Of a stretch of 32,000 nucleotides of DNA, positions 1,553 to 32,000 are shown piece by piece; the stretch's first letter is position 1; every line of letters begins with the position of its first letter. The notes under the pieces were generated by a model. It worked only from the letters and a program-made list of their open reading frames with translations, made no database searches and was not told the DNA's origin. The stretch spans positions 1,890,001 through 1,922,000 of the forward strand of contig CP149973.1 of NCBI GenBank assembly GCA_029269845.2, in the 5' to 3' direction. Position numbers and translations under genes: made by a program. This stretch comes from Opitutia bacterium KCR 482. GTDB taxonomy: Bacteria > Verrucomicrobiota > Verrucomicrobiia > Opitutales > Intestinicryptomonadaceae.

Positions 1553-2527
1553 TTGTCTTTGTTGGAAATGTTGGTAAGTTCGGGTTGTCCTTTTATATTT
1601 AAAGGTGGTACAGCCTTGATGTTAACATTAAATTCAGCAACGCATAGATTGTCTATCGATATTGATATTATTTGCCCACCTGGAACAAATATAGAAGATT
1701 TCTTGAAAAATTCATCTAAATATGGATTTTCGAGATTAGAATTTGTTGAAAGAAAGCAACGAGAAGGCGTTGATATCCCTAAAACACATTCAAAATTCTT
1801 TTACCAACTCGCCTACAATAGTGGAAATAATACTGAAAGCTATATCTTGTTAGATGTTTTATATGAAGATTCGCATTACTCTGAAATAAAAGAAATTCCA
1901 ATTGAAATGCCTTTTCTGCTTTTAGATGGGGCGGCATTGAAGGTTAAAACTCCATCGGCATCAGACATTCTTGGCGATAAATTGACTGCATTTGCCCCCA
2001 ATACGACAGGAATTCCATATTTAAAAAAAGGGAAGTCTCGCTCAATGGAAATAATAAAGCAATTGTATGACGTAGGTCGCTTGTTTGATGTAATTACTGA
2101 TGCAAAAATTACAAGCAATGCCTTTAAAAAAATTGCAAAAATAGAACTATCGTATAGAAAATCACCTAGCAAAATAGCCCAAGTAATCAGTGATATTAGG
2201 AATACTGCAATATGTATATCTACACGAGGGAAAGAAGGGATTGGTGATTTTAATTCATTACAAGATGGGATTAAAAGAATAGGTGCATTTATGTACAAAC
2301 AGCACTATTTTATTGAAGATGCCATTGCGGATTCTGCAAAAGCTGCATATCTTGCTACTTTAATCGAAAAAAATGTATTTACTATAGAAAAATATTCTAA
2401 TGATCCAAAAACTGTCGCTAGTCTGAATATAGAAGATTCCCTTCCAAGCAAACTCAATAAATTAAAGAAAAGTTCTTTTGAAGCATATTTTTATTGGGCC
2501 AAGGTAAGTAAACTTTTAAAACAATGA
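1553..2527 (+). CDS. Nucleotidyltransferase AbiEii/AbiGii toxin family protein; 5' end apparently frameshifted, ancestral start at ATG 1455
   Basis: FKGGTALMLTLNSATHRLSIDIDI is the AbiEii NTase signature (GGTAL ... S.D.D). A family-typical N-terminus, MIQKKCFSKEWIDEISTKLGYGDKP, runs from 1455 in another frame and stops at 1530-1532. LIEKSIRALSLLEML then continues in the ORF frame. Confidence 0.75.
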   Translation: MSLLEMLVSSGCPFIFKGGTALMLTLNSATHRLSIDIDIICPPGTNIEDFLKNSSKYGFSRLEFVERKQREGVDIPKTHSKFFYQLAYNSGNNTESYILLDVLYEDSHYSEIKEIPIEMPFLLLDGAALKVKTPSASDILGDKLTAFAPNTTGIPYLKKGKSRSMEIIKQLYDVGRLFDVITDAKITSNAFKKIAKIELSYRKSPSKIAQVISDIRNTAICISTRGKEGIGDFNSLQDGIKRIGAFMYKQHYFIEDAIADSAKAAYLATLIEKNVFTIEKYSNDPKTVASLNIEDSLPSKLNKLKKSSFEAYFYWAKVSKLLKQ

Positions 2528-18248: not shown

Positions 18249-18419
18249 GTAATTTTTAAAGTTCTACATAGAATGCTTTTCTATTTATTTGTCAATTCCT
18301 TTTTGCGGTTTTGTTTTTAGGCGTTTTTATCTCCGGGGGGGCTTCTTATCCTATTGACTATTTCGCGTCTGTTTTCAATTATAGGGCAACTAATTCAACC
18401 GCATTTATTTAATCTATAT

Positions 18420-21400
18420 ATGAAATTCATGTCGTTTGCTATCCTCTTTGCGTTCCTCTCGGCGGGCAAGCTCGGCGGCGCGCAAAATTCGGCGTATGCC
18501 GTCCTCGGCGGAGACGTTCCGATTGAAATTATCGAAGCCCCGAAAGACGTCCGCGTGCTTCACCGCACTTGGGGCGCGGAGGCGGCGCGCAAAAACTCCG
18601 TGCGCATTTACGCCCCCGTGTCCGACGGCGAATGGCGCAGGGTTGCGGTCAAGCTGAAAGTTCCCGCCGACTGCAAGTCTGTGCTGTCGTTCGGCGGCGA
18701 CGGCGAAAAATCGCCGTCGGGGCGTCCCAGAAACGCCGCCTTTTTTGACAACGTTTCGATAGATTCGGTCCCGCTTTACAACGGCGATTTCGAAAAGGGA
18801 AACGACTCGTGGAGCGTTGAGTCGGGCGGGAATTTCCCGGCGAAGATCGGCGCGTATCCGCGGGCTGCGGGCGCGGCGCATGGCGTGTTTGCGGCGCGGG
18901 CGAGTTCGTTCGGCGCGGTTCGGCGGACTGTTTCGCTCGAAGGCGGCAAGGTATTCGAGCTTGCGTTCGACGTTCTCGGCGCGAAGCCGTCGGATTTGGA
19001 GACCGACTTCCCCCTCGACCTCAAAAAATCCGCCAACGCTTCGCCTTCCGACTTCGCGCAAATGCGCAAGCTGCCGAAGGGCGCGATGCTCGGCGCGTTT
19101 CTTGAAAAGCTTTCCGGCAGTGCGGGCGTTTCGGAAGTTTGCGGCATAAAATTCGACATTGCAAATTCCGCGGCGAACTCCGGCAAGCTCGTCGTTGCGT
19201 TGAAGTCGTCGGCTGCTCCCTTCGCGCCGGCATCGGTCAAGACAGGCGGAATTTCGCGGTCGGGGCGGTATATTTACGTTGTGCACGCGCTGGCGAATCC
19301 CGACAGAATGCAGAAAGGCTGGTCTTTCGGCGCGCTTAACATCGAGTATGCCGACGGCGTGAAAAAAGGCTTCAGAATGCGCTACGGAATAGATGCGGAC
19401 GCGTACCGCGCGGCGAATCGGACTCTCCGCAACGGAAGAATCGCGTTTCCTTCCGACGGCGGCGCGCTTTACATGAGCCGCTTTCCGCTCGACGCCAACA
19501 GGCGCGTCGAGAAAGTGTCTTTTTCGGCGTACGGAAACGCGCCGTGGATTGTCGTTGCGGCGACAATTTCGGACAAAAAAGTTGACCCCTGCGAGACGAC
19601 CACACCGAAGGGAAATCCCGACTGGGTGCTTGCCGACATTCCCGAAGACCACCCCGTCAGGGCGGGCAGTGCTCTCGACCTCTCGTCGTTCCTCCCCGAC
19701 GCCGAGGCGGGGGTTTTCGGCAGGGTCATTATTTCGCCGCGCGGCACGATGGCGTTCGAAAAACATCCCGACGCCGACGTCAGGTTCAAGGGCTACACGT
19801 TTTATCCGCATTCTCTCGTTTTGAAGTACGACTTTGAGACCGCCCGCGACAATATGCGCAAGTACGCCGCGCAAATCAGAAAAAACGGCTACAATCTTCT
19901 GCGCATAAACTTCGACTATCTGAAATCGGACACAAAGCGAGCCGAACGCGCCTACCGCTACGACGAAATCGACTATCTTATCCGCGAGCTGAAACGCAAC
20001 GGGGTCTACATACACCTGCCGCTCGCGTGGTACGACATCGGCACGAAAAACTACTCGTTCCCGCAGCGCAACGACGTTAAAATCCGCGCTATTTTCGGCG
20101 AGCCCGAAGCCCGCGCAATGTGGCGCGAGACCGCCGAAGAGCAGCTCAACCACGTCAATCCGTACACGAATCTCGCGTGGAAGGACGACCCCGTTTTCCA
20201 GCTTTTCGAGTACTACAACGAGCTTTCGATTTGCCACAACAAGTTCGACGAATTTTCGCCCGCGACGCAAAAGCTATTGACCGACCGCTGGCGCGTGTGG
20301 CTTGAAAAACGCTACGGCACGGTCGGCAAGCTCAACGACGCGTGGCGCGGGAAGGCGTGGGCGAAGCGCGGCGGCTATCCGTTGAAGTCGTTTGCCGACG
20401 CGCAGTGCCTGACGGCGGGCGCGGACTGGGGGCGTTTCTGCCGCGAGGCGGAGTCGGAGTTCGCCGACTTCTGCAAAATGGTCGTGCGCGGCACGGGCTA
20501 CAAGGGCATAGTTTCGCAGCGCAACTTGGGCCGCGCCGTGTACGACTCTTGGGCGCGCGGCGGGTTTTCCGAAAACGTCATAGTGAACTCGTACTACGAG
20601 CACCCCGGCGGACTGTACACGCCAGACGCCGACCACACCTGCAATCAGGAGTCGTCGATAGCGCGTTCCGCGGGCTACTGGCGGGCGATTGCGCTTTCCA
20701 AGCACGCCGACCGCCCGCTTTCGGTTACCGAGTACAACCACTGTTATTGGAACAAGCACCGCTTCGAGATGATGTCGGTCTTCGCGCCGTATTCGGCGTT
20801 CCAGAATTTTTCGACGCTTATAATCCACGCGAACGCGGTTCCGTGGCGCGGTGGCTGGAAGTCGAGGCTGTCGCCGTTCAACGTCGCCGATTCGCCCGCG
20901 ATTCGCGCGGCGGAGCTGTTCAACCAGTGCTTCTTCATGCGAGGCGACGTGAAGCCCTCCGAGCACAGGGTGGACATGCTGATTGGCAAAAACTTTGTCG
21001 AAAAGGAGGATCGCGCGTTGAGTTCGGTCGGCGGCGGGCAGGGGCACATACCGCTGATTGTGGGCTTTGCTGTGAAGTCAGACGCGCCCGTTCCCGCGAA
21101 TCTAAAAAGCTCTAACCCCAAACCCGCCGACATGCAGATTCTTCCCGAAGGCGCGGCGGAAATCGTAACCGAGGGCTGGGCGCAGCGCGTTGTGGAGTCG
21201 GGCGACGGAAGCTTCGACCTCTCCAAATTCGTCGCCGAGGCGAAACGCCGCGGCATGCTTTCGCCCGACAACGAGAGCGACCCCGCCGCGGGCGTCTACC
21301 AGACCGACACGCGGCAAATCACAATGGACGCCAAGCGCGGAAGCATGAAAGTTGCAACCGACAAGTCTTGCGCGATAACCGTTCACGGAAACACGGCGGC

Positions 21401-21785
21401 GACTGCGGGCGCGTTGCGGCTGCTATCGACGACAGTTCCCGCGAGCGTCGGGCTTGCGTCGCTCGACGGAGCGGAAATCGGCAAAAGCTCGCGCCTTGTG
21501 TTTGTGTACGCCACTCAGGAAAACAACATCGACGCAATCACGAGCCTCGACGGCATTCTTTCGCTGAACGAGGGGCGCGGGCCCGTGGCGGTGCGCCGCG
21601 GCAGGGTTTGCGCCGAGCTGAAGCTCGACCCCTCCAAAAAGTTTTCCGTCTACGCGCTCGCGCTCAACGGCGAACGCCGCGGCAAAGTGTCCGCCGAATT
21701 TTCGGGCGGCGCTCTCAAGCTCGACATCGACAACGGAGCGTTTGCAAACGGCGCGCCGACTTTCTTTGAAATCGTTTCGGAATAA
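18420..21785 (+). CDS. Secreted multidomain glycoside-hydrolase-like protein: N-terminal CBM4/9-like domain plus a clan GH-A-like (beta/alpha)8 barrel
   Basis: The ATG at 18420 gives the signal peptide MKFMSFAILFAFLSAGKLGGAQN. NGDFEKGNDSWSVESGG is a CBM4_9-type start. Barrel-like motifs are GYNLLRINFDYL and YYNELS (candidate acid/base NE); SVTEYNHCYWN holds the candidate nucleophile E. Confidence 0.7.
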   Translation: MKFMSFAILFAFLSAGKLGGAQNSAYAVLGGDVPIEIIEAPKDVRVLHRTWGAEAARKNSVRIYAPVSDGEWRRVAVKLKVPADCKSVLSFGGDGEKSPSGRPRNAAFFDNVSIDSVPLYNGDFEKGNDSWSVESGGNFPAKIGAYPRAAGAAHGVFAARASSFGAVRRTVSLEGGKVFELAFDVLGAKPSDLETDFPLDLKKSANASPSDFAQMRKLPKGAMLGAFLEKLSGSAGVSEVCGIKFDIANSAANSGKLVVALKSSAAPFAPASVKTGGISRSGRYIYVVHALANPDRMQKGWSFGALNIEYADGVKKGFRMRYGIDADAYRAANRTLRNGRIAFPSDGGALYMSRFPLDANRRVEKVSFSAYGNAPWIVVAATISDKKVDPCETTTPKGNPDWVLADIPEDHPVRAGSALDLSSFLPDAEAGVFGRVIISPRGTMAFEKHPDADVRFKGYTFYPHSLVLKYDFETARDNMRKYAAQIRKNGYNLLRINFDYLKSDTKRAERAYRYDEIDYLIRELKRNGVYIHLPLAWYDIGTKNYSFPQRNDVKIRAIFGEPEARAMWRETAEEQLNHVNPYTNLAWKDDPVFQLFEYYNELSICHNKFDEFSPATQKLLTDRWRVWLEKRYGTVGKLNDAWRGKAWAKRGGYPLKSFADAQCLTAGADWGRFCREAESEFADFCKMVVRGTGYKGIVSQRNLGRAVYDSWARGGFSENVIVNSYYEHPGGLYTPDADHTCNQESSIARSAGYWRAIALSKHADRPLSVTEYNHCYWNKHRFEMMSVFAPYSAFQNFSTLIIHANAVPWRGGWKSRLSPFNVADSPAIRAAELFNQCFFMRGDVKPSEHRVDMLIGKNFVEKEDRALSSVGGGQGHIPLIVGFAVKSDAPVPANLKSSNPKPADMQILPEGAAEIVTEGWAQRVVESGDGSFDLSKFVAEAKRRGMLSPDNESDPAAGVYQTDTRQITMDAKRGSMKVATDKSCAITVHGNTAATAGALRLLSTTVPASVGLASLDGAEIGKSSRLVFVYATQENNIDAITSLDGILSLNEGRGPVAVRRGRVCAELKLDPSKKFSVYALALNGERRGKVSAEFSGGALKLDIDNGAFANGAPTFFEIVSE

Positions 21786-21788
21786 AAT

Positions 21789-24700
21789 ATGTTCAAAAAT
21801 AGCGTTTTGTGTCCGAAAATAATTTCGGCGTTCGCGGTTTTTTGCGCCTTAGCGCATTGCGGCGCGGCGTTTGCGGCGGAGCGCGACTCGCTGCGAGACT
21901 GCGGCGCGAGAATTGCCGTCGCCGCCGATTTCCCGCTTTTGCGCGGCGATGCGGAATCGGCAACCGTCAGGGAGTACAAGTCGAAAGGCGCGGGCGGCAA
22001 GACAAGCCATGTGCTGTTTGCCATGCACTTCAACTCCGACCCGTCCGCATGGGAGGAGATGAAGTTTTCGTTCGTGCCGTCGGAGTCGGGCGTCGTGCGC
22101 CTTTCGCTTTCGGGCGTCGAAAAGCGGCGCGGAGCTTCCGTCCGCAAGCTTGCCTCGTACTACGACGACCTGAAAATCGACGGTGCCCCGCACCCCAACG
22201 GCGGCTTCGAAAATGGCTTTGCGGGCTTTTCGTTCGCGAACTCCGCGCCGAAAATCGTGTTCGGCTCGAACCGCGCGGCGTCGGGCGGGGCGTGCCTGCG
22301 GGCGTGGTCGCGCACCTATACATGCGCGACGCTGAAAGTGGAAAGGGGAAGGCCCTGCGAAATTTCCGTCATGACGCGCCCCGCGGGAGAGCTTCCCGAA
22401 ATCGAGGACGCTTTTATCGACATTTCCGCAGCCGCAAATTCCTCCGAGAACTCCTTTCCTAAGGCGGGCGCAGTCGCTTTCGACGGAATCAATTTCTGGC
22501 TCGCTGGTTCGGACGGCGCGGTGAAAACCCTGCGCTTTCCGCCGAAAAACGGCAAGCCCGCCAAGATTTCGGTGGGCGGCGAAAACAGGGCGGGGCGGTA
22601 TCTCTACCTCCTCCACCGCATGGACAATTCGGCGTCGAAGCCCGACGCCTACATTGCGTCGGTCATTGTGAAGACCACGGGGAACAAGCCCGTCAAGCGC
22701 TTCGTGAAAATCGACAGGGACTGCGGGCGCAAAAACGCCTACGCGCCCGCGCACAACGCAAAGGCGGTGTTCTTCGGCGACGCCGAAAACAAAAGGGACG
22801 TTTGGTATTTGTCGCGCTTCGAGACGGGCGGGCTTACCGACGTCGAGGAGATAACTTTCAACACTTGGGCGGACGGCGACTGGTCGATAGCAGCCGCCAC
22901 GCTTTCCGACACCGACGTTCCGACTTTTGAAGTCTGGAAGCCCGCGCCCGACAAGTGGGCGGCGGCGGACATTCCCGCGAAAATGTCGGTGCTCGAAAAC
23001 TCCGCGCTCGACCTCTCGCGGTTTTTCCCCGACGCCGAGGCGGGGGCGTTCGGCAGGGTTATCGTCTCGCCGCGCGGCACGATGGCGTTCGAAAAAACGC
23101 CCGAACGCGACGCGCGTTTCAAGAGCTTCACGATGTCGCTTGCGCCGTTTTTCAGAATAGCCGACATCGACGCCCGCAAGCGTTCGCTCAAAAGCTACGC
23201 CGCGCAAATCAGGCGGGCGGGCTACAACTGCGTGCGCATGGAGTTCGAACAGTTCAAGAGCCACTCGGAGCGCAAAAATTTCAAAACCGCGATGGACTGC
23301 CTCGACTGCTTTTTTTCGGAGCTGAAAAAAAACGGCGTGTATGTCCACCTTGTAATCACTTGGCAGGAGTTGGGCGAGAGGGGCTTCAAAATGGGCGAAA
23401 TGCGCGACGATTCCAAGCTGCGCTGTCTCTTCGGCGACAAGACCGCGTGGCGGGCGTGGCGGAATGTCGCCGAGCTTCAGCTCAACCACTTCAACCCGTA
23501 CACGAATCTCGCGTGGAAGGACGACCCGATGTTCTTGCAGGTTGAGCATTTCAACGAGCTTTCCATCGTGCTTTCGCGCCTGAAACGCGGCACGCCGCGC
23601 ACGCAAAAACTCGTGCTTTCGAAGTGGCGCAAGTGGCTCGAAAAAAAATACGGCACGGTCGAAAAGCTCAACGAATCGTGGAACAGAAAGGGCTTTGTGT
23701 ACAACAGCGGCACGTTCGACTACGCCGATTTTTCCGAAGTCGGCGAGCCGTTCGTGAAAAATCCCGACTGGCAGGAGTTCGCGCTCGACCGCAAAACGCG
23801 CTTCCTCAAATTCTGCAACAAAACCGTCCGCGAAACCGGCTACAAGGGGATAATCGCGAGCGAGAACGTGGCGTCGTCGCCCGCGCAGAATGTCCCGCGC
23901 GGCGAAATGTTCGAGTCCATAATTTCCAACACATACTTCGCGCACCCCACGGGGCTTAACACAAAGGACGCCGCGACGCGCCAGAACAGCTGCATAGGCG
24001 ACGCCTTCCCGAACCTCGGCTCCGTGCTCTCGCGCCGCTTCGCCGACAGGCCGATAGGCATTACCGAATTCAACCACTGCTGGTGGAACATGCGAAGATA
24101 CGAGGTTTTGGGCACGTTCGCGCCGTACGCCGCGTTCCAGAACATGTCGATGCTTACAATCCACGAGGACATTGTTCCGTCCGACGTGAACGGGCTGCTG
24201 CCGCCGCATTTGAAGCTCAACCCGTTCAGAATCTGCCGCTCGCCGATTGTGAGGGCGTCGGAACTGCTCTCTGCGTGCTTCTTCGTGCGCGGCGACGTCG
24301 CGCGGGCTAAGTCGCGCGTGGACATGGTTATGGCGGGCGAGTATTTCGAAAAGAATCCGATAGAGTCGCAAAAGGCGGTCAACAGCGAGCAGATGAAAGT
24401 TGCGCTGCTCACGGGTTTTGCCGTTGACTGCGGCGGGGCGCGTCCCGACTCGTTGAAGAGCCTTGCGCCCAAGCCCGCCGACATGCGCATGCCGCCGATT
24501 GGCAGCTCCGACACAATCATGGAGGCGTGGTTTCAGGACGTAGTGCCGAACGCCGACGGCGGCGGCTTCGACCTGCGCGGATTCGTCGCAAAAATGCGCG
24601 AAAATAAAATCCTGCCCGATGGCAATTCCACCGACATTTCGCGCGGAATTTTCCAGACCGACACGGGCGAAATCACGATGAACGTTCCCGAAAAAAGCCT

Positions 24701-25145
24701 GAAAATTTCGACGCCGAAATCGCAGCTGCTCGTTTCCGAAAGCGGCGTCGGCGCGGACTTGGGAAATTTGAAAGTGCTGTCGTCGTCCGTTCCCGCGGCG
24801 GTCGCGGCGGCGTCGCTCGACGGTCTCGATTTGGGCAAAAGCCGCCGCATTGTCCTAATCTACGCGACCGCCGAGGCGAACACGGACATGAAAACCTCGT
24901 TCGATTTTCTGCGCATGCTCGACTCCGGCAAAGCCCCGATTCTCCTGAAAACGGGAACGCTCAAAGCCGAGCTGAAACTCGACCCGACCGCGAAATACGC
25001 CGTCTATCCGCTTTCGCTCGACGGCGCAAGGCGCGCGCCGATTCCCGCGAAATCCGCAAACGGAGTCTTGAAGCTCGAAATAGACACTTCAGGGCTTCCG
25101 CACGGCGCGACTACGCTTTTCGAAATAGCGGCCGTAGGAAACTAA
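21789..25145 (+). CDS. Secreted glycoside-hydrolase-like protein, tandem paralog of 18420..21785
   Basis: Signal MFKNSVLCPKIISAFAVFCALAHCGAAFA. The motif order is the same: NGGFENGFAGFS, GYNCVRMEFEQF, HFNELS, GITEFNHCWWN. It shares exact DNA stretches with the upstream gene. Confidence 0.7.
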   Translation: MFKNSVLCPKIISAFAVFCALAHCGAAFAAERDSLRDCGARIAVAADFPLLRGDAESATVREYKSKGAGGKTSHVLFAMHFNSDPSAWEEMKFSFVPSESGVVRLSLSGVEKRRGASVRKLASYYDDLKIDGAPHPNGGFENGFAGFSFANSAPKIVFGSNRAASGGACLRAWSRTYTCATLKVERGRPCEISVMTRPAGELPEIEDAFIDISAAANSSENSFPKAGAVAFDGINFWLAGSDGAVKTLRFPPKNGKPAKISVGGENRAGRYLYLLHRMDNSASKPDAYIASVIVKTTGNKPVKRFVKIDRDCGRKNAYAPAHNAKAVFFGDAENKRDVWYLSRFETGGLTDVEEITFNTWADGDWSIAAATLSDTDVPTFEVWKPAPDKWAAADIPAKMSVLENSALDLSRFFPDAEAGAFGRVIVSPRGTMAFEKTPERDARFKSFTMSLAPFFRIADIDARKRSLKSYAAQIRRAGYNCVRMEFEQFKSHSERKNFKTAMDCLDCFFSELKKNGVYVHLVITWQELGERGFKMGEMRDDSKLRCLFGDKTAWRAWRNVAELQLNHFNPYTNLAWKDDPMFLQVEHFNELSIVLSRLKRGTPRTQKLVLSKWRKWLEKKYGTVEKLNESWNRKGFVYNSGTFDYADFSEVGEPFVKNPDWQEFALDRKTRFLKFCNKTVRETGYKGIIASENVASSPAQNVPRGEMFESIISNTYFAHPTGLNTKDAATRQNSCIGDAFPNLGSVLSRRFADRPIGITEFNHCWWNMRRYEVLGTFAPYAAFQNMSMLTIHEDIVPSDVNGLLPPHLKLNPFRICRSPIVRASELLSACFFVRGDVARAKSRVDMVMAGEYFEKNPIESQKAVNSEQMKVALLTGFAVDCGGARPDSLKSLAPKPADMRMPPIGSSDTIMEAWFQDVVPNADGGGFDLRGFVAKMRENKILPDGNSTDISRGIFQTDTGEITMNVPEKSLKISTPKSQLLVSESGVGADLGNLKVLSSSVPAAVAAASLDGLDLGKSRRIVLIYATAEANTDMKTSFDFLRMLDSGKAPILLKTGTLKAELKLDPTAKYAVYPLSLDGARRAPIPAKSANGVLKLEIDTSGLPHGATTLFEIAAVGN

Positions 25146-25160
25146 GTCCGCCGACGTCCG

Positions 25161-25203
25161 AAAAAAACGCGCCGCAAATTTAAAAATACGGCGCGTTTTT
25201 TTT
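25161..25203. terminator. Bidirectional intrinsic terminator between convergent genes
   Basis: A7 - AACGCGCCG (25166-25174) - 14-nt loop - CGGCGCGTT (25189-25197) - T run to 25203. It sits between the stops at 25145 (+) and 25213 (-). Confidence 0.75.
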
Positions 25204-25212
25204 GCGGCAAAT

Positions 25213-27099
25213 TTATTCGAAAACCGCGAGCGGAAATTCCGACGGCGTGGATTCTATTTTCGCTTTCGCCGCGGAATTTGTAAGCCGCGCGTCGGCTTCG
25301 GGAGAGTCGGGGTTGTCGAAGTCGTCCACGATTACGCCTATTCCCATTACGGCGTTGGCGGCGAGCTTTTGCGGAAGCATTGCGGTGGCTTCGAATTCGA
25401 GTTCGAGCATGTATCCGCCGTCCGTCTTCCTGAACGCGCCCCTGACGTCGTCGGCGAACGTGTGCACTTTCGCGCCGAGAATGCCGAGCGTAAGCTGCAC
25501 GTCGGGCACGGACAGCCTGTAAACTTTCGCTTCGTCCGAGCCTTTCGTCTTCCAGATTTTGAAGTGCCAGTCGTCCGCGCCGAGCCGCCGCTCTTCGGGC
25601 GTGTCGGCGGCGTCGGCAAGGGTATCGAAAATAATCTCGACGGCGTCGGCGCGCGCTCCCGCGTCGGCGGAGTCGCCGTCTGCTTCGAGGAATTTGTCGT
25701 CGCGCACAAAGACTGCAATCCGCAGTTTGTCGGCGTCGCGCAGAATTTTGTAGCGCGCTGAAAACTGCTCCGCCGTCGGGTTGATTCCCCTGCTCCACAG
25801 CTTTTCCGAGCGTCTTATGTTGTCGAGGCTTATCGGCGGAACGCCCTCCCATTTGTCCCAGTTTTTGCCGATTTCGCCGAAGTCTTCGCGCGTGTTTTTT
25901 ACGAGGAGCGCGCGGAAGCTTTTTGGGTAGGTGAAGTCGCGCTTTACGGGCGAGGCGAGCGAGAGCGAAATTTTTTCGGCGAACTTTTTTATCGCGGTAT
26001 CGGTTATTTTTGCGGGCGCGGAAAAGACGAATTTCCGCGAGTCGTTTTCGGCAATCGCAAAGTTTTGGGAATCGCCGCGAAGCCCGATTTTCCCGCGCAT
26101 TTCGGCGGTGTAGGGGTTGCCCGCCGAGACCGAAAATTTGCCCGCCGAAACCGGCGCAAACTTTACCTTCGGCAAAATCGGCGCGTTCGATTTCCACTTT
26201 GCCGACTTCAACGCCGCCGCCAGTTCGCCCGCGCTTGCCGCCCGCAGGAATACGGGGAAAATCGAGAGCCGCAGCCGGTCGGAGCCGTCGGCGTTTTTGT
26301 CGAAGCTTCTTTCATGCCCCATGATGTCGAAAAGCTCCGTTCCGCGCGGCGCGGCAAACGACATTTCGGGCGGGCGCATTGTTCCCCTGTCGAACTCCTT
26401 TTTGCACGCCCAGATTGCGGCAACCGCCTTGCCCGCGCCGTCGTCGAATACAAAACAGCGCGTGTCGGCAAAGACCTTCAATTCGAAGAGAAAATCCGAC
26501 TCTCCCAGAAGATTGCCGAGCGTGTTCGGCACAATGTGGTACGCGTAGGGCGAAAGCGTCGCGTCCATCTGCGACACCCCGTAGTTGGAGGCGTTCATCG
26601 ATTTTATGTTCGCGTACTTCAAGCCCACAAGCCAAGTCCGCGCGCGCAGGGCGGTCGCAAGCCTTTCGCCGTGCCCGATGTCGTAGGTGTACGGAAGCAC
26701 GCCGCGCAGGGGTTTTGCCCGCCGCTCCAAATCGGTTATAAACGGCACGTCGTAGCAGTGTACGGGCAGCCAGTGCATGCCCTCCGGCGAGTAGACGTCG
26801 ATGTTTTCGTAGCCGTGTTTTTTGAAGACGGCAAAGAGGCTTTCGTAGTTTTCGTCAAGGGTGGGGCGCGGATATTCTGGCGCACCGCGGTAGATGTGCG
26901 CTCCCGCGCAGTCGTATTTTATCCCGCGTTTGCGGGTTTCTTCGAGGAGTCTGTCGAAGAACGTTATTCTGTCGTCGCGGGCGAGGGTGGACGTAATGCT
27001 TGTGGAGAGCCGCGCCGACTGCGGAGAAATTCTTTGCGCAGACAAAATCGAGCGTGCGCTTTTCCCTGAAGTCTGCCTGCGATTCGAAAAGCGGGGCAT
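25213..27099 (-). CDS. Carbohydrate-active-like protein with a C-terminal CBM9/DOMON-like domain; the 5' end is probably frameshifted from a lipoprotein signal at 27196
   Basis: The C-terminal segment KLRIAVFVRDDKFLEADG...DAVEIIFD...DDWHFKIW...GGYMLELEF fits the CBM9-like pattern (D..l.iav.v.Dd....D.vE.f.D). The first 30 or so codons (MPRFSNRRQTSGKSARS...) look non-coding. Confidence 0.6.
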   Translation of the reverse strand: MPRFSNRRQTSGKSARSILSAQRISPQSARLSTSITSTLARDDRITFFDRLLEETRKRGIKYDCAGAHIYRGAPEYPRPTLDENYESLFAVFKKHGYENIDVYSPEGMHWLPVHCYDVPFITDLERRAKPLRGVLPYTYDIGHGERLATALRARTWLVGLKYANIKSMNASNYGVSQMDATLSPYAYHIVPNTLGNLLGESDFLFELKVFADTRCFVFDDGAGKAVAAIWACKKEFDRGTMRPPEMSFAAPRGTELFDIMGHERSFDKNADGSDRLRLSIFPVFLRAASAGELAAALKSAKWKSNAPILPKVKFAPVSAGKFSVSAGNPYTAEMRGKIGLRGDSQNFAIAENDSRKFVFSAPAKITDTAIKKFAEKISLSLASPVKRDFTYPKSFRALLVKNTREDFGEIGKNWDKWEGVPPISLDNIRRSEKLWSRGINPTAEQFSARYKILRDADKLRIAVFVRDDKFLEADGDSADAGARADAVEIIFDTLADAADTPEERRLGADDWHFKIWKTKGSDEAKVYRLSVPDVQLTLGILGAKVHTFADDVRGAFRKTDGGYMLELEFEATAMLPQKLAANAVMGIGVIVDDFDNPDSPEADARLTNSAAKAKIESTPSEFPLAVFE

Positions 27100-27313: not shown

Positions 27314-28267
27314 TTAGTTGCCTATTTTCGCTTTTATCAACAAAGGAAAGTGATCCGAAAGCCATACGCCGTTCTGGTTGTCGGCAAGAACTCCAAACTT
27401 CAATACATTTACATCTCCCGAAACGAAAATCCAATCTATCCAATTCGTCCAATCCGTTCCCTTCCCTGTGTACCAATAATTGTCGGTAAATTTTGGTCCG
27501 TAAAACGGAGTCTTGGAAATTTTACGAGCATCGTGCATATATCCCGAAGCCTGTATCACGCCAATGGCTTGCGTCGTCGGATTGGAGTTTAAATCTCCCA
27601 TCGCAAAGAACGTGCCGTCTCCCGCTATTTCCCTTATCTTTTTTACAAGCAATTTCGCCGACTCCAAGCGGATATTCTCTCCTATGTGGTGGAAGTGCAT
27701 ATTGAAAAAGTGGAAAGTTTTTCCCGTCTTTTTGTCCAAGAATTTCCCCCAGTTGCAGTTGCGGGGATACGCCGCACCCCAACCGCGGGATTCCTTCTCG
27801 GGCGTGTCCGAAAACCAAAATACTCCGCTTTCGAGAAGGTCGAATCTGTCCTTCCTATAAATGATTACGTTGTTGTGGTTGACTTTTCCCTTCGCCTCGG
27901 CGGACGGTGTAGTGGGCACGCCGAATATCGCGTATTCCTCCATCTTCCTCATATCGTCCACCTGATTCTTGTAAAGCTCCTGCGTGCCGCAAATGTCGAC
28001 TTCGTTGTAGCGCAAAAAGTCCTTTATTAGCGGGCAGCGTTTTTCCCAAGTACAGGAACCGTCTCTGACTTCGCATTCCCTTCCCTTATCGTCCTTGTAG
28101 GTCTTGGTTATCCTGCCGTCGTTCTTGCAGTCAAACCTCATATTGAACTGGCATATATTGATATCCGCATTCCTGCCTTCCCCTTCAGGCGTCGCACAAC
28201 CTAAAAAAGAAATCGACACCACGCCTGCCATCAGTCCGAAAAATAATTTTCTCAAAGTTATTCTCAT
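27314..28267 (-). CDS. Endonuclease/exonuclease/phosphatase (EEP) family lipoprotein
   Basis: MRITLRKLFFGLMAGVVSISFLGC (lipobox). EEP motifs are ICQFNMRF, DICGTQE, FFAMGDLN, IDWIFVSG and SDHFPL. GGAG lies 9 nt upstream of ATG 28267. The track ORF extends to 28405. Confidence 0.8.
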   Translation of the reverse strand: MRITLRKLFFGLMAGVVSISFLGCATPEGEGRNADINICQFNMRFDCKNDGRITKTYKDDKGRECEVRDGSCTWEKRCPLIKDFLRYNEVDICGTQELYKNQVDDMRKMEEYAIFGVPTTPSAEAKGKVNHNNVIIYRKDRFDLLESGVFWFSDTPEKESRGWGAAYPRNCNWGKFLDKKTGKTFHFFNMHFHHIGENIRLESAKLLVKKIREIAGDGTFFAMGDLNSNPTTQAIGVIQASGYMHDARKISKTPFYGPKFTDNYWYTGKGTDWTNWIDWIFVSGDVNVLKFGVLADNQNGVWLSDHFPLLIKAKIGN

Positions 28268-28626
28268 AATTTTAAACTCCATTTCAGTAGTAGAACAAAT
28301 GAATTGTAGAACAAATGAATTGGTCTTTTTCAAGTTAAAAACGATGTTTCGTTGAAAAAAGGACGGATTCGAAAGGGATAATTGATTTACCAAAGAGAAA
28401 GGCAAATCAAACAGGTAAGATTCTTCATATTACCGTTTGAAAGCGAAATACGGCGAATGGAATCCGAGAATGTTGGGAGTTCGCGAGTCCGAACGTTGGA
28501 AACGCATAACAACCAAGCAGATGTCCGACATAACAATGCCGACAACACCAACTCGAAGAGCCACGGAGAACGGGCAAACATAAAGCTTCAACATTACCGA
28601 AATATTGCGCGGCAGCGACAGCCTAA

Positions 28627-31347
28627 CTATCTGTTCAGCCCCAGCAAAAATTCCACGTTCGTCCGCACCTTTTTGAGCCGCTGGACGAGCATTTCCATGG
28701 CGTCGGTTGCGGGCACGCCTTTCATTGCGCGGCGAAGGGCGTAGATTTTCGACATTTCGTCGGGGTGGTAGAGCAGTTCCTCCTTGCGCGTTCCGCTCTT
28801 TTCGATGTTGATTGCGGGGAAAATGCGCTTGTCGGAAAGGGCGCGGTCGAGGTGCAGTTCCAAGTTGCCAGTTCCCTTGAATTCCTCGAAGATGACTTCG
28901 TCCATTTTGCTTCCCGTTTCGACGAGCGCCGTTCCTATGATTGTCAGCGACCCGCCGCCTTCGATGTTCCTTGCCGAGCCGAAGAATTTTTTCGGCTTTT
29001 GCAGGGCGTTCGCCTCTACGCCGCCCGACATCGTGCGCCCTCCGTTGGGCATGAGAGCGTTGTACGCTCTCGCGAGCCTTGTGATGGAGTCGAGCAGAAT
29101 CACGACGTCAAGACCGCGTTCGACCATTCGGCGCGCGCGGCTTACGACCATCTCCGCCGCGTGGACGTGGCTCGACGCCTCTTCGTCGAAAGTGGACGCC
29201 ACAACTTCCGCGTCCACGTTTCGCTTGAAGTCCGTCACTTCTTCGGGGCGTTCGTCAACGAGCAGTATTATGAGGTGCGCGTCGGGCGCGTTGCGGCGTA
29301 TCGACTTCGCCATTCCCTGCATGAGCACGGTTTTGCCCGTGCGCGGCGGCGCGACGATTAGCGCGCGCTGTCCGAAGCCGATTGGCGTCAGCAAATCGAC
29401 CGCGCGCATCGAGAGGTTTTCCGGCTCGCCCGTCGATTCCAAAATGATTCTGCGCGTGGGGTAGTAGGGCGTGAGGTCTGTGAACGGAACAATGTTTTTC
29501 GCCTTTTCGGGGTCGCCGTCCATTACGGAAGTGATTGCCACGGCAATCGGGCAGTTTTCGCGCCCGAATTCGCGCGGCGGCATTGCGAGCGCGCCGACGG
29601 TGTGCCCGCGTTTCAGCCCGTATTTGTCCACGAACATTTGCGGAACGTACACCGAGTTCCTGCCGAGCCTGTAATTTTCCGAAGCGAACGTTATCGCGCC
29701 GCCGAAGCCGTCCTCGAACACGTCGAGAGTGCCGCGCACGCGCACGAGCTTTTTGAGCGCGAACGCGTATTTGAAGTAATCCGCAAGAAGCTCCGCCTTG
29801 CCGATTCCCGCGCGGCAGGGAACCCCGAGTTCCGCGAATTTTTCGCGGATTTCGCGAATCCCCAATTTCAATATTTCGCCGAAGTCTCCGAGCGACTCTA
29901 TCGCGCCGCAGCCGTCGATTTCGAGCGTCGTGCCCTCCGAAAATTCCGCCGCTTCCTCTCCGCTTTGCGCCGCGGAGTCCGCGCCGTTTTCGGCGGCGGT
30001 TTGCGGTTTTTCCGCGTCGCCCACCGCTTTTTCGAGGCCGTATTTTTTCACGGCGGAGTCGTTGGCGTTTACCATCAGCTCCCAATAATTCATGTCGGCA
30101 ACGCTCTTTTTTGCGGGTTCTTCCGTGGCGGGCGTCGCGTCTGATTCGGGCGAAGCGGCTTGCGATGAGTTCGCGTCTCCGTTCTCTGGTTGCGTTTCCG
30201 ATTGCGCTTCGGTTTGCGCCGCGTTTGCGTCAACCGCGGCTTCCGTTTCCGTTGCGGATTCCGCCTGTTCCTGCGCTTGATGTTCGGCGTCGGGCGTTTC
30301 GGACGGGTTTACGGGAATCGCCGTTTCGAAAGATTCGGGGAAGGGCGGCATTCCGAAAAACACCTGCGCGAGCCAGTTTTTAAGCGCGGCTTCGTTTCTG
30401 AGCGCGAACCATTCGGGGAGGTCGGCGGGGTTTATGAAATCGGACTCGCCGTTTTGCGACCAGCGCGGCTTTTTCTGCTTTTGCTGTTTCTGCTGCTGGC
30501 GGTTGTCGTTGCGGTTGTCGCGCCGCTGTTGCTGGTTTTGCCCGCGTTCCGCGCCCTGCTGGCGGTTGTTGTTTTGCTGGCGGTTTTGCCTGTCGTTGCG
30601 GTTGTCGTTGGCGCGCCTGTTGTTTTGGTTGCGGTCGTTGTTGCGGTTGTCGCGCCGCTGTTGCTGCTGGTTTTGGCGGTTGTTGAAGCGGTTAAAATTT
30701 TTGTCGCGCGGGTTGCGGCGGTTTTGGGCGTCGCGCGGTTCGTCGTCGTCTGCGGCGTTTTCGTACTCGCGGGCTTCGGCTATTCTGCGCTCGGCGTCGG
30801 AGTCGTTGCGGTAGGCGTCGGGGTCGAGGTCTTCGTCTGTCGTGGAAAACGACGTCGGAATTTCGTCGTCGCCGCCGTCCGCGCTGTTTTCGGATTCCGT
30901 CGAATCCGCGCCGCTTGCCGTGTAGGCGAAGTCGTCCGACCTGTCGGAGTGCACGAAAATTTCGGACTCGTCGTTGCCGCCGTCCTCCGCGCGTTCGGGT
31001 TCTTCCGATTGCGTAGGGGCGGGGGTGTCGCGCCAAGTAGGCCCGTCGGCGCGGGGGATTTTTGCGCCGCGACCCGCGCCAGACTTTCTCTTCCGCACTT
31101 CGCTGTCGAGCGTTTCGTCGAGCGATTTCGACTGCTGGTTTTGCGCGTCCGCCGCGTTTTGTTCGCCGCCGTGAAATTCGGAAAGCTCCGCCTGCGTTGC
31201 GGATTCCGCCGTTTCGCCGTCGCGGATTTTCCTCGGCCTGCCGCGTTTTTTTGCGGGCTTTTCGGCGTCGGCGATTTCGGGATTCTTGGGTTTTCTGCCG
31301 CGTTTCTTTGCGGGTTCAACGGGTAAATTTTGTTCTTCTTCGTCCAT
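28627..31347 (-). CDS. rho: Transcription termination factor Rho with a low-complexity N-terminal extension of about 485 aa
   Basis: The C-terminal 420 or so aa are canonical Rho: a Rho_N-like helix bundle ([18 protein letters not shown]...KAELL), OB region ([12 protein letters not shown]), Walker A (APPRTGKT), [23 protein letters not shown] and [18 protein letters not shown]. Confidence 0.95.
30508..30666. repeat. 27-nt exact direct repeat inside the rho low-complexity region
   Basis: GTTGCGGTTGTCGCGCCGCTGTTGCTG occurs at 30508-30534 and 30640-30666 (plus strand). Both copies encode QQQRRDNRN on the minus strand. Confidence 0.85.
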
Positions 31348-31940
31348 TATGGATTTTTATTTAAACGTGATAGGACAAGCTCTGCCTGCCGTTTTAAAAA
31401 TGCGGTGTCGCTTTCGTTGAAAAGCACGATGTCGGCGAGTTTTGACTTTTGTTCGGGCGGCATTTGGAATGCGTCGCGCCGCGCTATTTGTTCGTCCGAC
31501 ATTCCCCTGTTCGACAGGCGGAATTTCCGCAGTGGTTCGCTACAAAAAACAGTAATGCAGAAATCGAATTTCTTTTCAAGTTTTTTCTCGAAAAGTAGCG
31601 GCACTTCCACCACCGCGATTTTCCCGTCGGGTAGTTTTTCCGCCGCCGCCCGCCATTCCCTTTCGATTGCGGGGTGTATTGCGCGTTCGATTTTCGCGAG
31701 CTTTGCGGCGTCGGAAAAAACCGCCTTTGCAATTTCCGCGCGGTTCGGTTTGCCGTCGGCTCCGTATGCGCGTTCGCCGACCGCGCGTTTGACCGCCGCG
31801 ACCACTTCGGGGTTGTTTTCGAGAGCGGCGTGCGCGAGTTTGTCGGCGTCGAGCACTTTCGCCCCGAGTTCGGCGAAAGCCTGCGCCGCCGCCGATTTCC
31901 CGCAGCCCATTCCGCCCGTCAATGCTATTGTAGTTGCCAT
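31347..31940 (-). CDS. coaE: Dephospho-CoA kinase
   Basis: [16 protein letters not shown] (P-loop at the N-terminus as in CoaE), [18 protein letters not shown]. The likely start is ATG 31940; the track ORF starts at 31982. The TAA stop overlaps the rho ATG (TAATG). Confidence 0.85.
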
Positions 31941-32000
31941 TGTTTTTGTTTCGGAAAGCGTTTTTATTCGGATTGCGCCCATGCGGACTGCGCGTTTTCT

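Follow-up and report, generated by a model that had tools for sequence, protein, structure and literature searches.

The rho locus

The stretch of DNA analyzed in this study (referred to as the window) covers 32,000 nucleotides of contig CP149973.1 from Opitutia bacterium KCR 482 (assembly GCA_029269845.2; positions 1,890,001 to 1,922,000 of the forward strand), and the gene of concern encodes a transcription termination factor Rho with a long N-terminal extension. A single rho open reading frame (ORF) of 906 amino acids plus the stop codon was found in the ORF list at positions 28627-31347 of the minus strand. Pfam analysis of this ORF detected the Rho_RNA_bind (residues 538-614) and ATP-synt_ab (residues 647-851) domains, and a phmmer search against PDB sequences yielded an E-value of 8e-116 with E. 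coli Rho structures. On the basis of sequence comparison, the product is a genuine Rho factor of a gut-associated Opitutales bacterium, with a presumed hexameric structure and role in termination. Approximately 470 residues in front of the N-terminal helix bundle form, with near certainty, a translated, selectively maintained, modular, and mostly disordered arm. A preceding examination of the DNA letters alone (referred to as the sequence-only reading) had described this extension as a succession of two AT-hook-like motifs, an acidic region, a tract of N, Q, R, and D, a hydrophobic island, and a linker. All of these features were recovered at their positions (Table 1), and the description was refined by two conserved predicted helices inside the extension (residues 303-332 and 421-436).

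Conservation of the extension and its start codon

A search of 5.8 billion protein clusters revealed 51 proteins of 775-960 amino acids that outscored all other Rho by far; most of them spanned the entire query with 41-100% identity, and a few were shorter or showed 67-69% coverage. The next tier of homologues consisted of ordinary or insertion-bearing Rho, which matched just the last 41% of the query. When 26 family proteins were aligned (the basis of all conservation and charge values in this study; the hook census described below covered 58 family members), the reading frame and length class were preserved throughout, down to ~42% overall identity. A genome scan with the extension alone, using residues 163-180 as the search pattern, detected six loci with the extension, all in gut- or animal-associated Opitutales, including Opitutales MAG (metagenome-assembled genome) HGM23545, Coraliomargarita sp. 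CAG:312, uncultured Opitutales UMGS811, E27 bin309, and bin281. Judging from these sequences, the extension is retained by ~60 relatives from gut Opitutales (Verrucomicrobiota).

Selection was estimated by the Nei-Gojobori method against a relative with 86% identity (L007), and the ratio of nonsynonymous to synonymous substitution rates (dN/dS) was below 1 in all segments: 0.23 for the hooks, 0.43 for the first acidic stretch, 0.11 for the acidic motif block (residues 101-204), 0.095 for the N/Q/R tract, 0.35 for the island, 0 for the YWEL helix (zero amino acid changes), 0.43 and 0.50 for linkers 1 and 2, respectively, 0.05 for the OB fold, and 0 for the ATPase (0 nonsynonymous versus 59 synonymous changes).

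The ATG start codon of rho (31347-31345) overlaps by one base with the TAA stop codon of coaE as TAATG (the sequence there is ...CCATAATGGAC...), and both this overlap and the gene order def-coaE-rho were also present in L007 and two further relatives (L008 and L009). At all six loci, the frame opened only 2-4 codons 5' of the same start, M-[DEQ]-E-[DE], the start Met was invariant, and the first RGR motif occurred within ~25 residues of it. If the true start were internal, the upstream 470 codons would be untranslated read-through. Such an annotation artefact would be compatible with the absence of a Shine-Dalgarno sequence 5' of the first ATG, and with the internal Met419 (30091-30093, minus strand; in DMNYWEL), which is retained in 21 of the 26 relatives and has a weak purine-rich AAGAG ~11 nt upstream. 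However, P, I, or L replaced Met419 in the other five relatives, the motifs as well as the frame and length class persisted to the identity limit given above, and dN/dS was 0.1-0.5 along the extension. Because relatives keep the extension, the start position is shared by six loci, and dN/dS is below 1 throughout, the extension is not read-through; the shared start, the overlap with coaE, and dN/dS effectively refute a start-codon artefact as the source of the sole product, and the chance left to it is close to nil. The sequence-only reading had named an internal start codon, or an extension absent or unconserved in close relatives, as findings that would overturn it, and had proposed alignment to orthologues as a check. 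Since homologues, alignment, start codon, and selection agree, neither applies, and both the extension and the hook motifs were conserved in the relatives. An extra short isoform (~488 amino acids) may be produced by internal initiation at Met419 beside the long form, because this residue is mostly kept and has the weak AAGAG upstream, but it cannot be the only product.

Predicted fold and disorder

In the phmmer alignments with PDB sequences, residues 50-413 of E. coli Rho corresponded to residues 536-901, and residues 11-418 of Thermotoga maritima Rho to residues 490-902; these alignments assign the helix bundle (E. coli residues 1-47) to residues ~487-533. The OB fold follows the bundle directly without any insertion between them, and all residues upstream of the bundle are extra. 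In an AlphaFold2 model of the full protein, the predicted local distance difference test (pLDDT) value was below 50 at residues 1-74, 89-166, 197-302, 337-414, and 437-466, and ordered structure began at around residue 471 with a β-hairpin ahead of the helix bundle. The two alignments agreed with the earlier statement that canonical Rho elements start only around residue 485, and the hairpin moves this boundary to around residue 471. The mean scaled hydropathy (0.32) was also well under the Uversky order/disorder boundary (0.44).

In a sub-model of residues 293-640, pLDDT was 77-91 for residues 303-332 (helix 319-331), 66-69 for helix 421-436, and 67-95 for the region containing the hairpin, three-helix bundle, and OB fold (residues 463-625), in which helices 489-530 and the OB strands reached 87-95. 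Foldseek comparison of the modelled N-terminal domain with that of E. coli Rho (1a62 and 2a8v) gave TM values of 0.84-0.85 and an rmsd of 2.3 Å. Pfam Rho_N was undetected in the full protein, and in residues 300-536 even at E <= 10; the helix bundle is nevertheless present, because the model superposes on the E. coli N-terminal domain. The alignments and Foldseek together bore out the claim that the extra region precedes the helix bundle and does not split the N-terminal domain. The high pLDDT of helix 303-332 suggests that this helix, together with helix 421-436, packs on the folded N-terminal domain.

Modular organization of the extension

The order of modules was strict across the family alignment. 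The hooks, the third basic patch, G-P-x-W-R-D, EIF...DDFAY, the motif of residues 163-180, and the N/Q/R tract come first, followed by KKPRW...INPADLPEW...LK...LAQxFFG, an acidic linker, DM(N/S)YWELMANANDS, a second acidic linker, an F-x-E...C-G-x-I-E-S hairpin, and the helix bundle. The acidic D/E/S-rich region (residues 46-204) had a net charge of -29 and included three invariant acidic-aromatic short motifs (GPxWRD, EIFxx...DDFAY, and the motif of residues 163-180), and the A/E/T/Q-rich linker region (residues 346-484) had a net charge of -25, while the hydrophobic island corresponded to residues 309-337. A weak predicted helix (residues 76-88) directly precedes the third basic patch and overlaps its first residues.

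The 96 residues at positions 205-300 contained 25 N, 23 Q, 22 R, and 8 D, with a net charge of +18; N and Q accounted for ~50% of this tract, charged residues for 36% (22 R, 5 K, and 8 D), and only two aromatic residues were found. Across the family, the tract varied in length (61-115 amino acids) and its sequence was not conserved, but its net charge was kept at +10 to +16. Tandem DNA repeats were not evident as the origin of the tract: Tandem Repeats Finder (TRF) gave just four short, low-scoring arrays, and a single protein-level repeat, QQQRRDNRN, occurred twice. The net charges of the other blocks were +1 to +8 (hooks), -21 to -36 (acidic block), -2 to -6 (island), and -14 to -26 (linker). 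Sequence comparison indicates that the low-complexity parts conserve charge rather than sequence, and, since the block charges are kept across the family, the extension can be described as a block polyampholyte, (+)(--)(++)(-)(--).

Table 1. Features of the rho locus in the window (residue numbers refer to the 906-amino-acid product; invariance refers to the 26 aligned sequences)
Feature	Position	Strand	Evidence and remarks
Complete rho ORF	28627..31347	-	ORF list, Pfam, E = 8e-116 to E. coli Rho structures
AT-hook-like motif 1, residues 12-21	31285..31314	-	Core G-R-K-P; K14, R16, G17, R18 invariant
AT-hook motif 2, residues 31-40	31228..31257	-	Canonical R-G-R-P with basic flanks; G36, R37, K40 invariant
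Third basic patch, residues 84-99	31051..31098	-	Semi-conserved; RGRP/RGRK-type third hook in 19/58 relatives
G-P-x-W-R-D motif, residues 102-107	31027..31044	-	G102, P103, W105, R106, D107 invariant
Acidic-aromatic motif, residues 129-142	30922..30963	-	D138, F140 invariant; E129, I130, F131, D139 invariant or nearly so
Acidic motif, residues 163-180	30808..30861	-	Best-conserved stretch of the extension; P164, S168, T169, D171, D173, L174, Y179 invariant
N/Q/R(D) low-complexity basic tract, residues 205-295	30463..30735	-	Composition; pLDDT <50; predicted disordered
KKPRW...INPADLPEW module, residues 293-335	30343..30471	-	N306, P307, L310 invariant; W296, W313 nearly so; predicted folded/helical
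Acidic A/E/T/Q/P-rich linker 1, residues 346-414	30106..30312	-	Disordered, fast-evolving; pLDDT <50; 11 gapped positions versus L007
Conserved helix, residues 418-435	30043..30096	-	Y421, W422 invariant; N429 nearly so; no amino acid change versus L007
Acidic linker 2, residues 436-470	29938..30042	-	pLDDT <50 for 437-466
β-Hairpin (471-486) and N-terminal helix bundle (487-533)	29749..29937	-	Predicted strands 474-477, 481-486; helices 489-494, 497-507, 517-530
OB-fold RNA-binding domain, residues 534-625	29473..29748	-	Remodelled primary-binding-site residues; Pfam Rho_RNA_bind 34 bits
RecA-type ATPase motor, residues 626-906	28630..29472	-	Walker motif and SGTRKEELL conserved; fully canonical
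coaE (dephospho-CoA kinase)	31347..31982	-	Pfam; TAA stop shares one base with rho ATG

AT-hook-type motifs

A canonical AT-hook has a G-R-P core with K/R within 1-5 residues on its flanks and a length of 10-15 amino acids (PMC4615771). Motif 2 (residues 32-42) corresponds to this definition, whereas motif 1, with G-R-K-P, does not in the window; its core is G-R-P in P0003-P0008 and other orthologues. Pfam analysis of the extension alone detected nothing besides a sub-threshold AT_hook (PF02178), for which the first 60 residues scored 13.7 bits (E = 0.058; gathering threshold, 17.4 bits); this model consists of 13 positions, and its threshold is usually reached only with several copies. Among the AT-hook-like motifs of the sequence-only reading, the second therefore stood, with its R-G-R-P core and basic flanks, while the first fell short of the definition; because of the G-R-K-P core and the Pfam score below the cut-off, the wording "AT-hook-like" was correct. 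The extended AT-hook for RNA binding, (K/R)>3 - X6-20 - GRP - X6-20 - (K/R)>3 (PMC4615771), was not found: a basic patch is located upstream (residues 14-21, with 14 residues from K21 to G36), but none occurs 6-20 residues after P38.

The general form of the hook in the family was KKRGR(P/K)xK, in two or three copies. At least two hooks were found in 55 of the 58 members, and one member had a single hook; the remaining two, with none, seem N-terminally incomplete, since they are short and, where coverage was given, their N-terminus was not covered. The expectation for [KR][KR]RGR[KP] was 0.0009 per protein of this composition, and two copies were obtained in 0 of 100,000 shuffles. When a profile of the extension was searched against 1.84 billion representative proteins and the best 150 of 366 matches were examined, ~12 full-length extension-bearing Rho clusters and fragments were found; none of these 150 matches was a Rho outside the extension family. 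All other proteins among them (>100, non-Rho) matched profile positions ~3-70 only, with several stretches each, and eight of the nine scanned passed the Pfam AT_hook threshold, the ninth being a Helicase_C protein. These comparisons indicate that the basic motifs are of the AT-hook type.

In P0003 and P0004 (86%-identical relatives), the hook module was a clean direct duplication of ~33 amino acids, PAKKRGRP+KIR..E....QTEL.EF. At positions 31180-31320 of the window (minus strand), the first copy was shortened to ~19 amino acids and its core changed from GRP to GRKP, which at the sequence level shows recent duplication and deletion dynamics. A metagenomic Helicase_C protein of 1005 amino acids (P0170; L010 2947-5964 / L011 1444-4461) had ~12 N-terminal KRRGR(P/K)PK hooks with acidic spacers between them and an R/D/N/Q-rich C-terminal tail: the same "grammar" of disordered regions as in the Rho extension, on another nucleic-acid motor.

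OB fold and ATPase motor

The Pfam score of Rho_RNA_bind (34 bits; cut-off 27) was weak, which fits a remodelled primary binding site. D-G-F-G-F-L-R of E. coli Rho corresponded to D-G-x-G-G-A-I-T-F in the family, with three extra residues and the loss of F64 and R66; GFGFLR reads GFGGAITF in the present protein, and D78 is replaced by Ser (S565). In place of E108-R109-Y110 was G-R-E-N-C-P, which has two additional residues and an invariant Cys599 but lacks Tyr. Only Y80 (Y567) was retained of the canonical set F62/F64/R66, D78/Y80, and E108/R109/Y110. The corresponding motifs, G(Y/F)GFLR, DD(I/V)Y, and EG(E/D)(K/R)(Y/F), were kept in six outgroup Rho, including long-insertion Rho of Bacteroidota and Clostridiaceae. 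With these residues lost, the protein is a divergent Rho, and not a non-member.

The ATPase motor was identical (100%) to that of L007 at the amino acid level, at a dS of 0.36. In alignment with E. coli Rho, Walker A/B, the catalytic Glu, the Arg finger, the Q-loop, and the R-loop were all identified; K672, T673, E699, R700, D753, and R854 were invariant in the 26 relatives. The two substitutions in the Q-loop (K283 to R771 and T286 to S774) were both conservative, and Pfam ATP-synt_ab scored 92.5 bits.

Comparison with atypical Rho and AT-hook proteins

The sequence-only reading had regarded the location in front of the helix bundle as a stand-out feature, a judgment that does not hold against the literature. 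Such regions are the "initial region" of Type 2 Rho defined in a recent survey (Moreira et al. 2024, NAR; PMC11347177), which counted it in 18.7% of Rho sequences; initial and "2d" regions combined were present in nearly half of the sequences from the Planctomycetota-Verrucomicrobiota-Chlamydiota (PVC) group. With ~470-486 residues before the helix bundle and no insertion between the bundle and the OB fold, the present protein belongs to this type; Pfam Rho_N alone would place it in subtype 2d, and the predicted structure places it in 2a. Type 2a/2d Rho (e.g., Xanthomonas oryzae, +214 amino acids) share with it a pre-bundle, disordered region of biased composition with QN and RxR-like stretches, and are common in PVC bacteria. 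On the other hand, the maxima in the survey were 352 (initial), 393 (2d), and 455 (insertion) amino acids, compared with ~470-485 amino acids here and ~620 amino acids in a family member, P0156. The AT-hooks and five family-invariant short motifs of the present protein are not among the four motifs given there (APA, QN, RxR, and EDDV), and Pfam Rho_N is undetectable. Some Rho of Actinomycetota and PVC bacteria have an RNP3 insertion without the conserved RNP1 GFGF, as described in PMC11347177; the change in RNP3 here was just +2 amino acids.

Bacteroides thetaiotaomicron, also a gut bacterium, has a Rho with a long intrinsically disordered region (IDR) (Krypotou et al., Science 2023; EMBO J 2026, PMC13269538). 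Next to a short conserved domain, this IDR has one charged and one N/Q-rich subdomain, and its composition is kept while its sequence is not (PMC13269538). Its RNA-dependent condensation is both driven and autoinhibited by short conserved stretches that carry opposite charges; opposite-charge blocks and conserved short motifs were also found here, where condensation is a putative property. This IDR differs in being located between the helix bundle and the OB fold, KE-rich (versus D/E/S-rich and N/Q/R), and without AT-hooks; no similarity to it was seen, and Rho from outside the family did not appear in the best 150 of the 366 profile matches. The insertion in Rho of Mycobacterium tuberculosis and Micrococcus luteus is likewise Arg-rich and disordered, raises RNA affinity, and sets the choice of Rho utilization (Rut) sites (PMC13650167; PMC11347177). 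It is, however, an insertion and not an N-terminal extension, non-homologous, and without AT-hooks or large acidic blocks. The prion-like domain of Clostridium botulinum Rho is likewise a tract of low complexity and N/Q bias within the N-terminal part. Its core, which is 90% N and S, is uncharged and follows the helix bundle (PMC4703818), unlike the charged tract of the present protein.

In common with the AT-hook of HMGA-type proteins (PF02178), motif 2 has R-G-R-P with K/R within 1-5 residues, and the profile similarity to proteins passing AT_hook was reciprocal; motif 1 is close to the AT-hook-like PKKRGRKAK of Drosophila G9a (PMC4615771). The hooks here differ in that they occur in an RNA translocase of bacteria and not in a protein of chromatin, and in that their Pfam score is below threshold in the window. 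No report of AT-hooks on a Rho was found in the literature searched. An extra region before the helix bundle is already known in kind; new here are its size, the AT-hooks on a Rho, the invariant short motifs together with the block charges, and their coupling to a remodelled primary binding site.

Neighboring genes and composition of the window

Terminator-like or promoter-like sites were not found downstream of rho. A 378-amino-acid ORF on the opposite strand (30190-31326, plus strand) was rejected as a gene, because frame conservation and dN/dS favored the minus strand; this shadow ORF results from the strong skew of the coding strand (AT skew down to -0.86). A gene of the endonuclease/exonuclease/phosphatase family (27314-28405, minus strand) and a low-GC spacer (0.37 at 28100-28550) separate rho from a CBM9 gene. 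Both were also present in L009, and neither was found in L007 or L008 (both 86% identical), where the CBM9 gene directly follows rho; this interval (27314-28550) looks like a lineage-specific insertion or deletion. The GC content of the window was ~58-63%, with clearly AT-richer islands, of which this spacer is an example. Elsewhere in the window, an ORF at 1553-2527 (plus strand) clearly encoded an AbiEii nucleotidyltransferase toxin domain of the type IV toxin-antitoxin / abortive infection kind (Pfam E = 3e-19), and large glycan-related ORFs were located at 18354-27099: 1143 amino acids (weak Glyco_hydro_42), 1118 amino acids (no Pfam match), and 628 amino acids (CBM9). The latter fit a polysaccharide-degrading Opitutales bacterium of the gut.

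Proposed function of the extension

By analogy with other Rho proteins, the extension probably adds nucleic-acid binding or condensate control. In the overall explanation that we favor, at a probability of roughly 55%, a selected disordered arm adds nucleic-acid contacts, acidic autoinhibition, and possibly condensation; for the mechanistic part, taken by itself, the odds are about even. The hooks and the N/Q/R tract (~+15) would provide up to 6 x 3 extra low-specificity, multivalent nucleic-acid contacts per hexamer around the entry face, with nascent RNA as the probable main target of the basic modules and AT-rich DNA as a possible one. In transcript capture, these contacts may supplement or replace an OB cleft without most of the canonical pyrimidine-binding residues. 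The acidic blocks and the invariant acidic-aromatic motifs may fold onto the basic modules or the N-terminal domain as autoinhibitors, or may bind partners, and the alternating-charge grammar would let RNA and the state of the cell tune the recruitment of Rho. Alternating charge could also drive RNA-dependent condensation, as with the unrelated IDR of B. thetaiotaomicron Rho, in which positive short motifs bind RNA and drive condensation and negative ones restrain it (PMC13269538). As a further precedent, nearly all Helicase-SELEX Rut sites of M. tuberculosis Rho depended on its Arg-rich, disordered insertion (PMC13650167), and AT-hooks bind RNA as well as DNA (PMC4615771).

Several points weigh against this explanation. 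Its mechanism is drawn for the present protein by analogy, and the hooks do not reach the Pfam AT_hook cut-off. The whole extension is net acidic (~-37) and could repel nucleic acid unless regulated, and the invariant acidic-aromatic motifs resemble sites for protein docking more than simple counterweights of charge. That the two helices pack on the N-terminal domain is suggested by their pLDDT values, and a second, canonical rho may be present in these genomes.

Other explanations were compared with that of a nucleic-acid-binding, autoinhibited arm. The sequence-only reading had called the N/Q/R tract prion-like. As a prion-like switch, the tract would inactivate Rho by forming an amyloid that propagates itself, which has been reported for C. 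botulinum Rho. Charged residues disfavor amyloid formation, and the prion reading is weak because 36% of the tract is charged. The tract is disordered and half of its residues are N or Q, and, according to the survey, PLAAC scores the QN-rich parts of other initial regions, such as that of X. oryzae, as prion-like (PMC11347177); however, the scarcity of aromatic residues, the net charge that the family keeps in place of the N/Q pattern or length, and the N/S composition of the C. botulinum amyloid core (PMC4703818) all point in the other direction. The description as prion-like thus fits poorly, and a prion switch is very unlikely. A different possibility is that the extension mainly serves to recruit, by its invariant motifs, partners such as RNA polymerase, NusG/NusA, nucleoid proteins, or RNases, with the charged tracts as spacers. 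Acidic-aromatic short motifs in disordered regions are typical protein-binding elements, and those of the family, including the GPxWRD-type and YWELM motifs, were invariant over ~40% divergence while their flanks drifted, with a dN/dS of only 0.11 in the motif block. Docking as the main role nevertheless leaves the hooks and the net charge kept by the N/Q/R tract unexplained, and the invariant motifs are not shared docking modules, since the profile found only AT-hook proteins outside the Rho family in its best 150 of 366 matches. We regard it as unlikely, though with a real chance of being right; a docking role as such is plausible and compatible with the nucleic-acid-binding arm.

Two further explanations give the hooks a more specific task. 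The xenogeneic silencers H-NS and Lsr2 use hooks of the RGR type, and a job of this kind combined with Rho would result if the hooks anchored Rho to AT-rich (e.g., foreign) duplex DNA or to the nucleoid, so that termination is targeted by DNA composition. The canonical R-G-R-P core binds the AT-rich minor groove in HMGA proteins (PMC4615771), and the GC-rich window has AT-richer islands; against this, each subunit has just two or three hooks beside a strongly acidic block, AT-hooks bind RNA too, the substrate of Rho is RNA, and the precedent for basic Rho IDRs is RNA binding. DNA tethering is the most interesting of the rival variants as a predicted function of the hooks, and is quite improbable. 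It is equally a long shot that the family has largely abandoned the pyrimidine-reading OB cleft and that the disordered N-terminal arm selects the targets. In that case, the hooks would read the duplex DNA of foreign/AT-rich loci, or AU-rich transcripts made from them, and the N/Q/R tract (+15) and the acidic autoinhibitory motifs would gate engagement. Finally, the genomes may also carry a canonical housekeeping Rho, in which case the long form would be a divergent copy that is "Group B-like" and serves a niche. The survey reports 30 PVC-group genomes with two rho genes, in which the second copies often have no detectable N-terminal domain and small insertions in the RNA-binding domain (PMC11347177), and the present protein has an undetected Pfam Rho_N and OB fold insertions of +3 and +2 amino acids. 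On the other hand, the helix bundle is structurally present in the predicted model, the constraint on the ATPase is extreme (no nonsynonymous change), and the housekeeping gene order def-coaE-rho is conserved, which make the second-copy explanation improbable.

Significance for Rho of gut bacteria

How IDRs reprogram Rho is under active study. In Bacteroides, such a region acts in phase separation and in fitness in the gut; in M. tuberculosis, it acts in the selection of Rut sites, and in C. botulinum as a prion-like switch. The Opitutales family represents an independent and extreme natural experiment in another gut lineage, with the longest N-terminal region of Rho so far when compared with the 2024 survey. 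The layout of hooks, short invariant motifs, and blocks of kept charge can be read unusually easily, and the primary RNA-binding site to which it is coupled is degenerate. If the arm, and not the OB cleft, did select the targets, a gut Verrucomicrobium would possess a terminator that has its specificity encoded in an IDR and merges xenogeneic-silencer-like targeting with Rho; if the extension merely repeats known IDR behavior, the family would be a useful comparative case and not a surprise. As the second system of a Rho IDR in gut bacteria, the family is moderately interesting for specialists and offers testable, concrete elements that can be mutated to ask whether an IDR can take over substrate selection from, or add DNA tethering to, a universal terminator.

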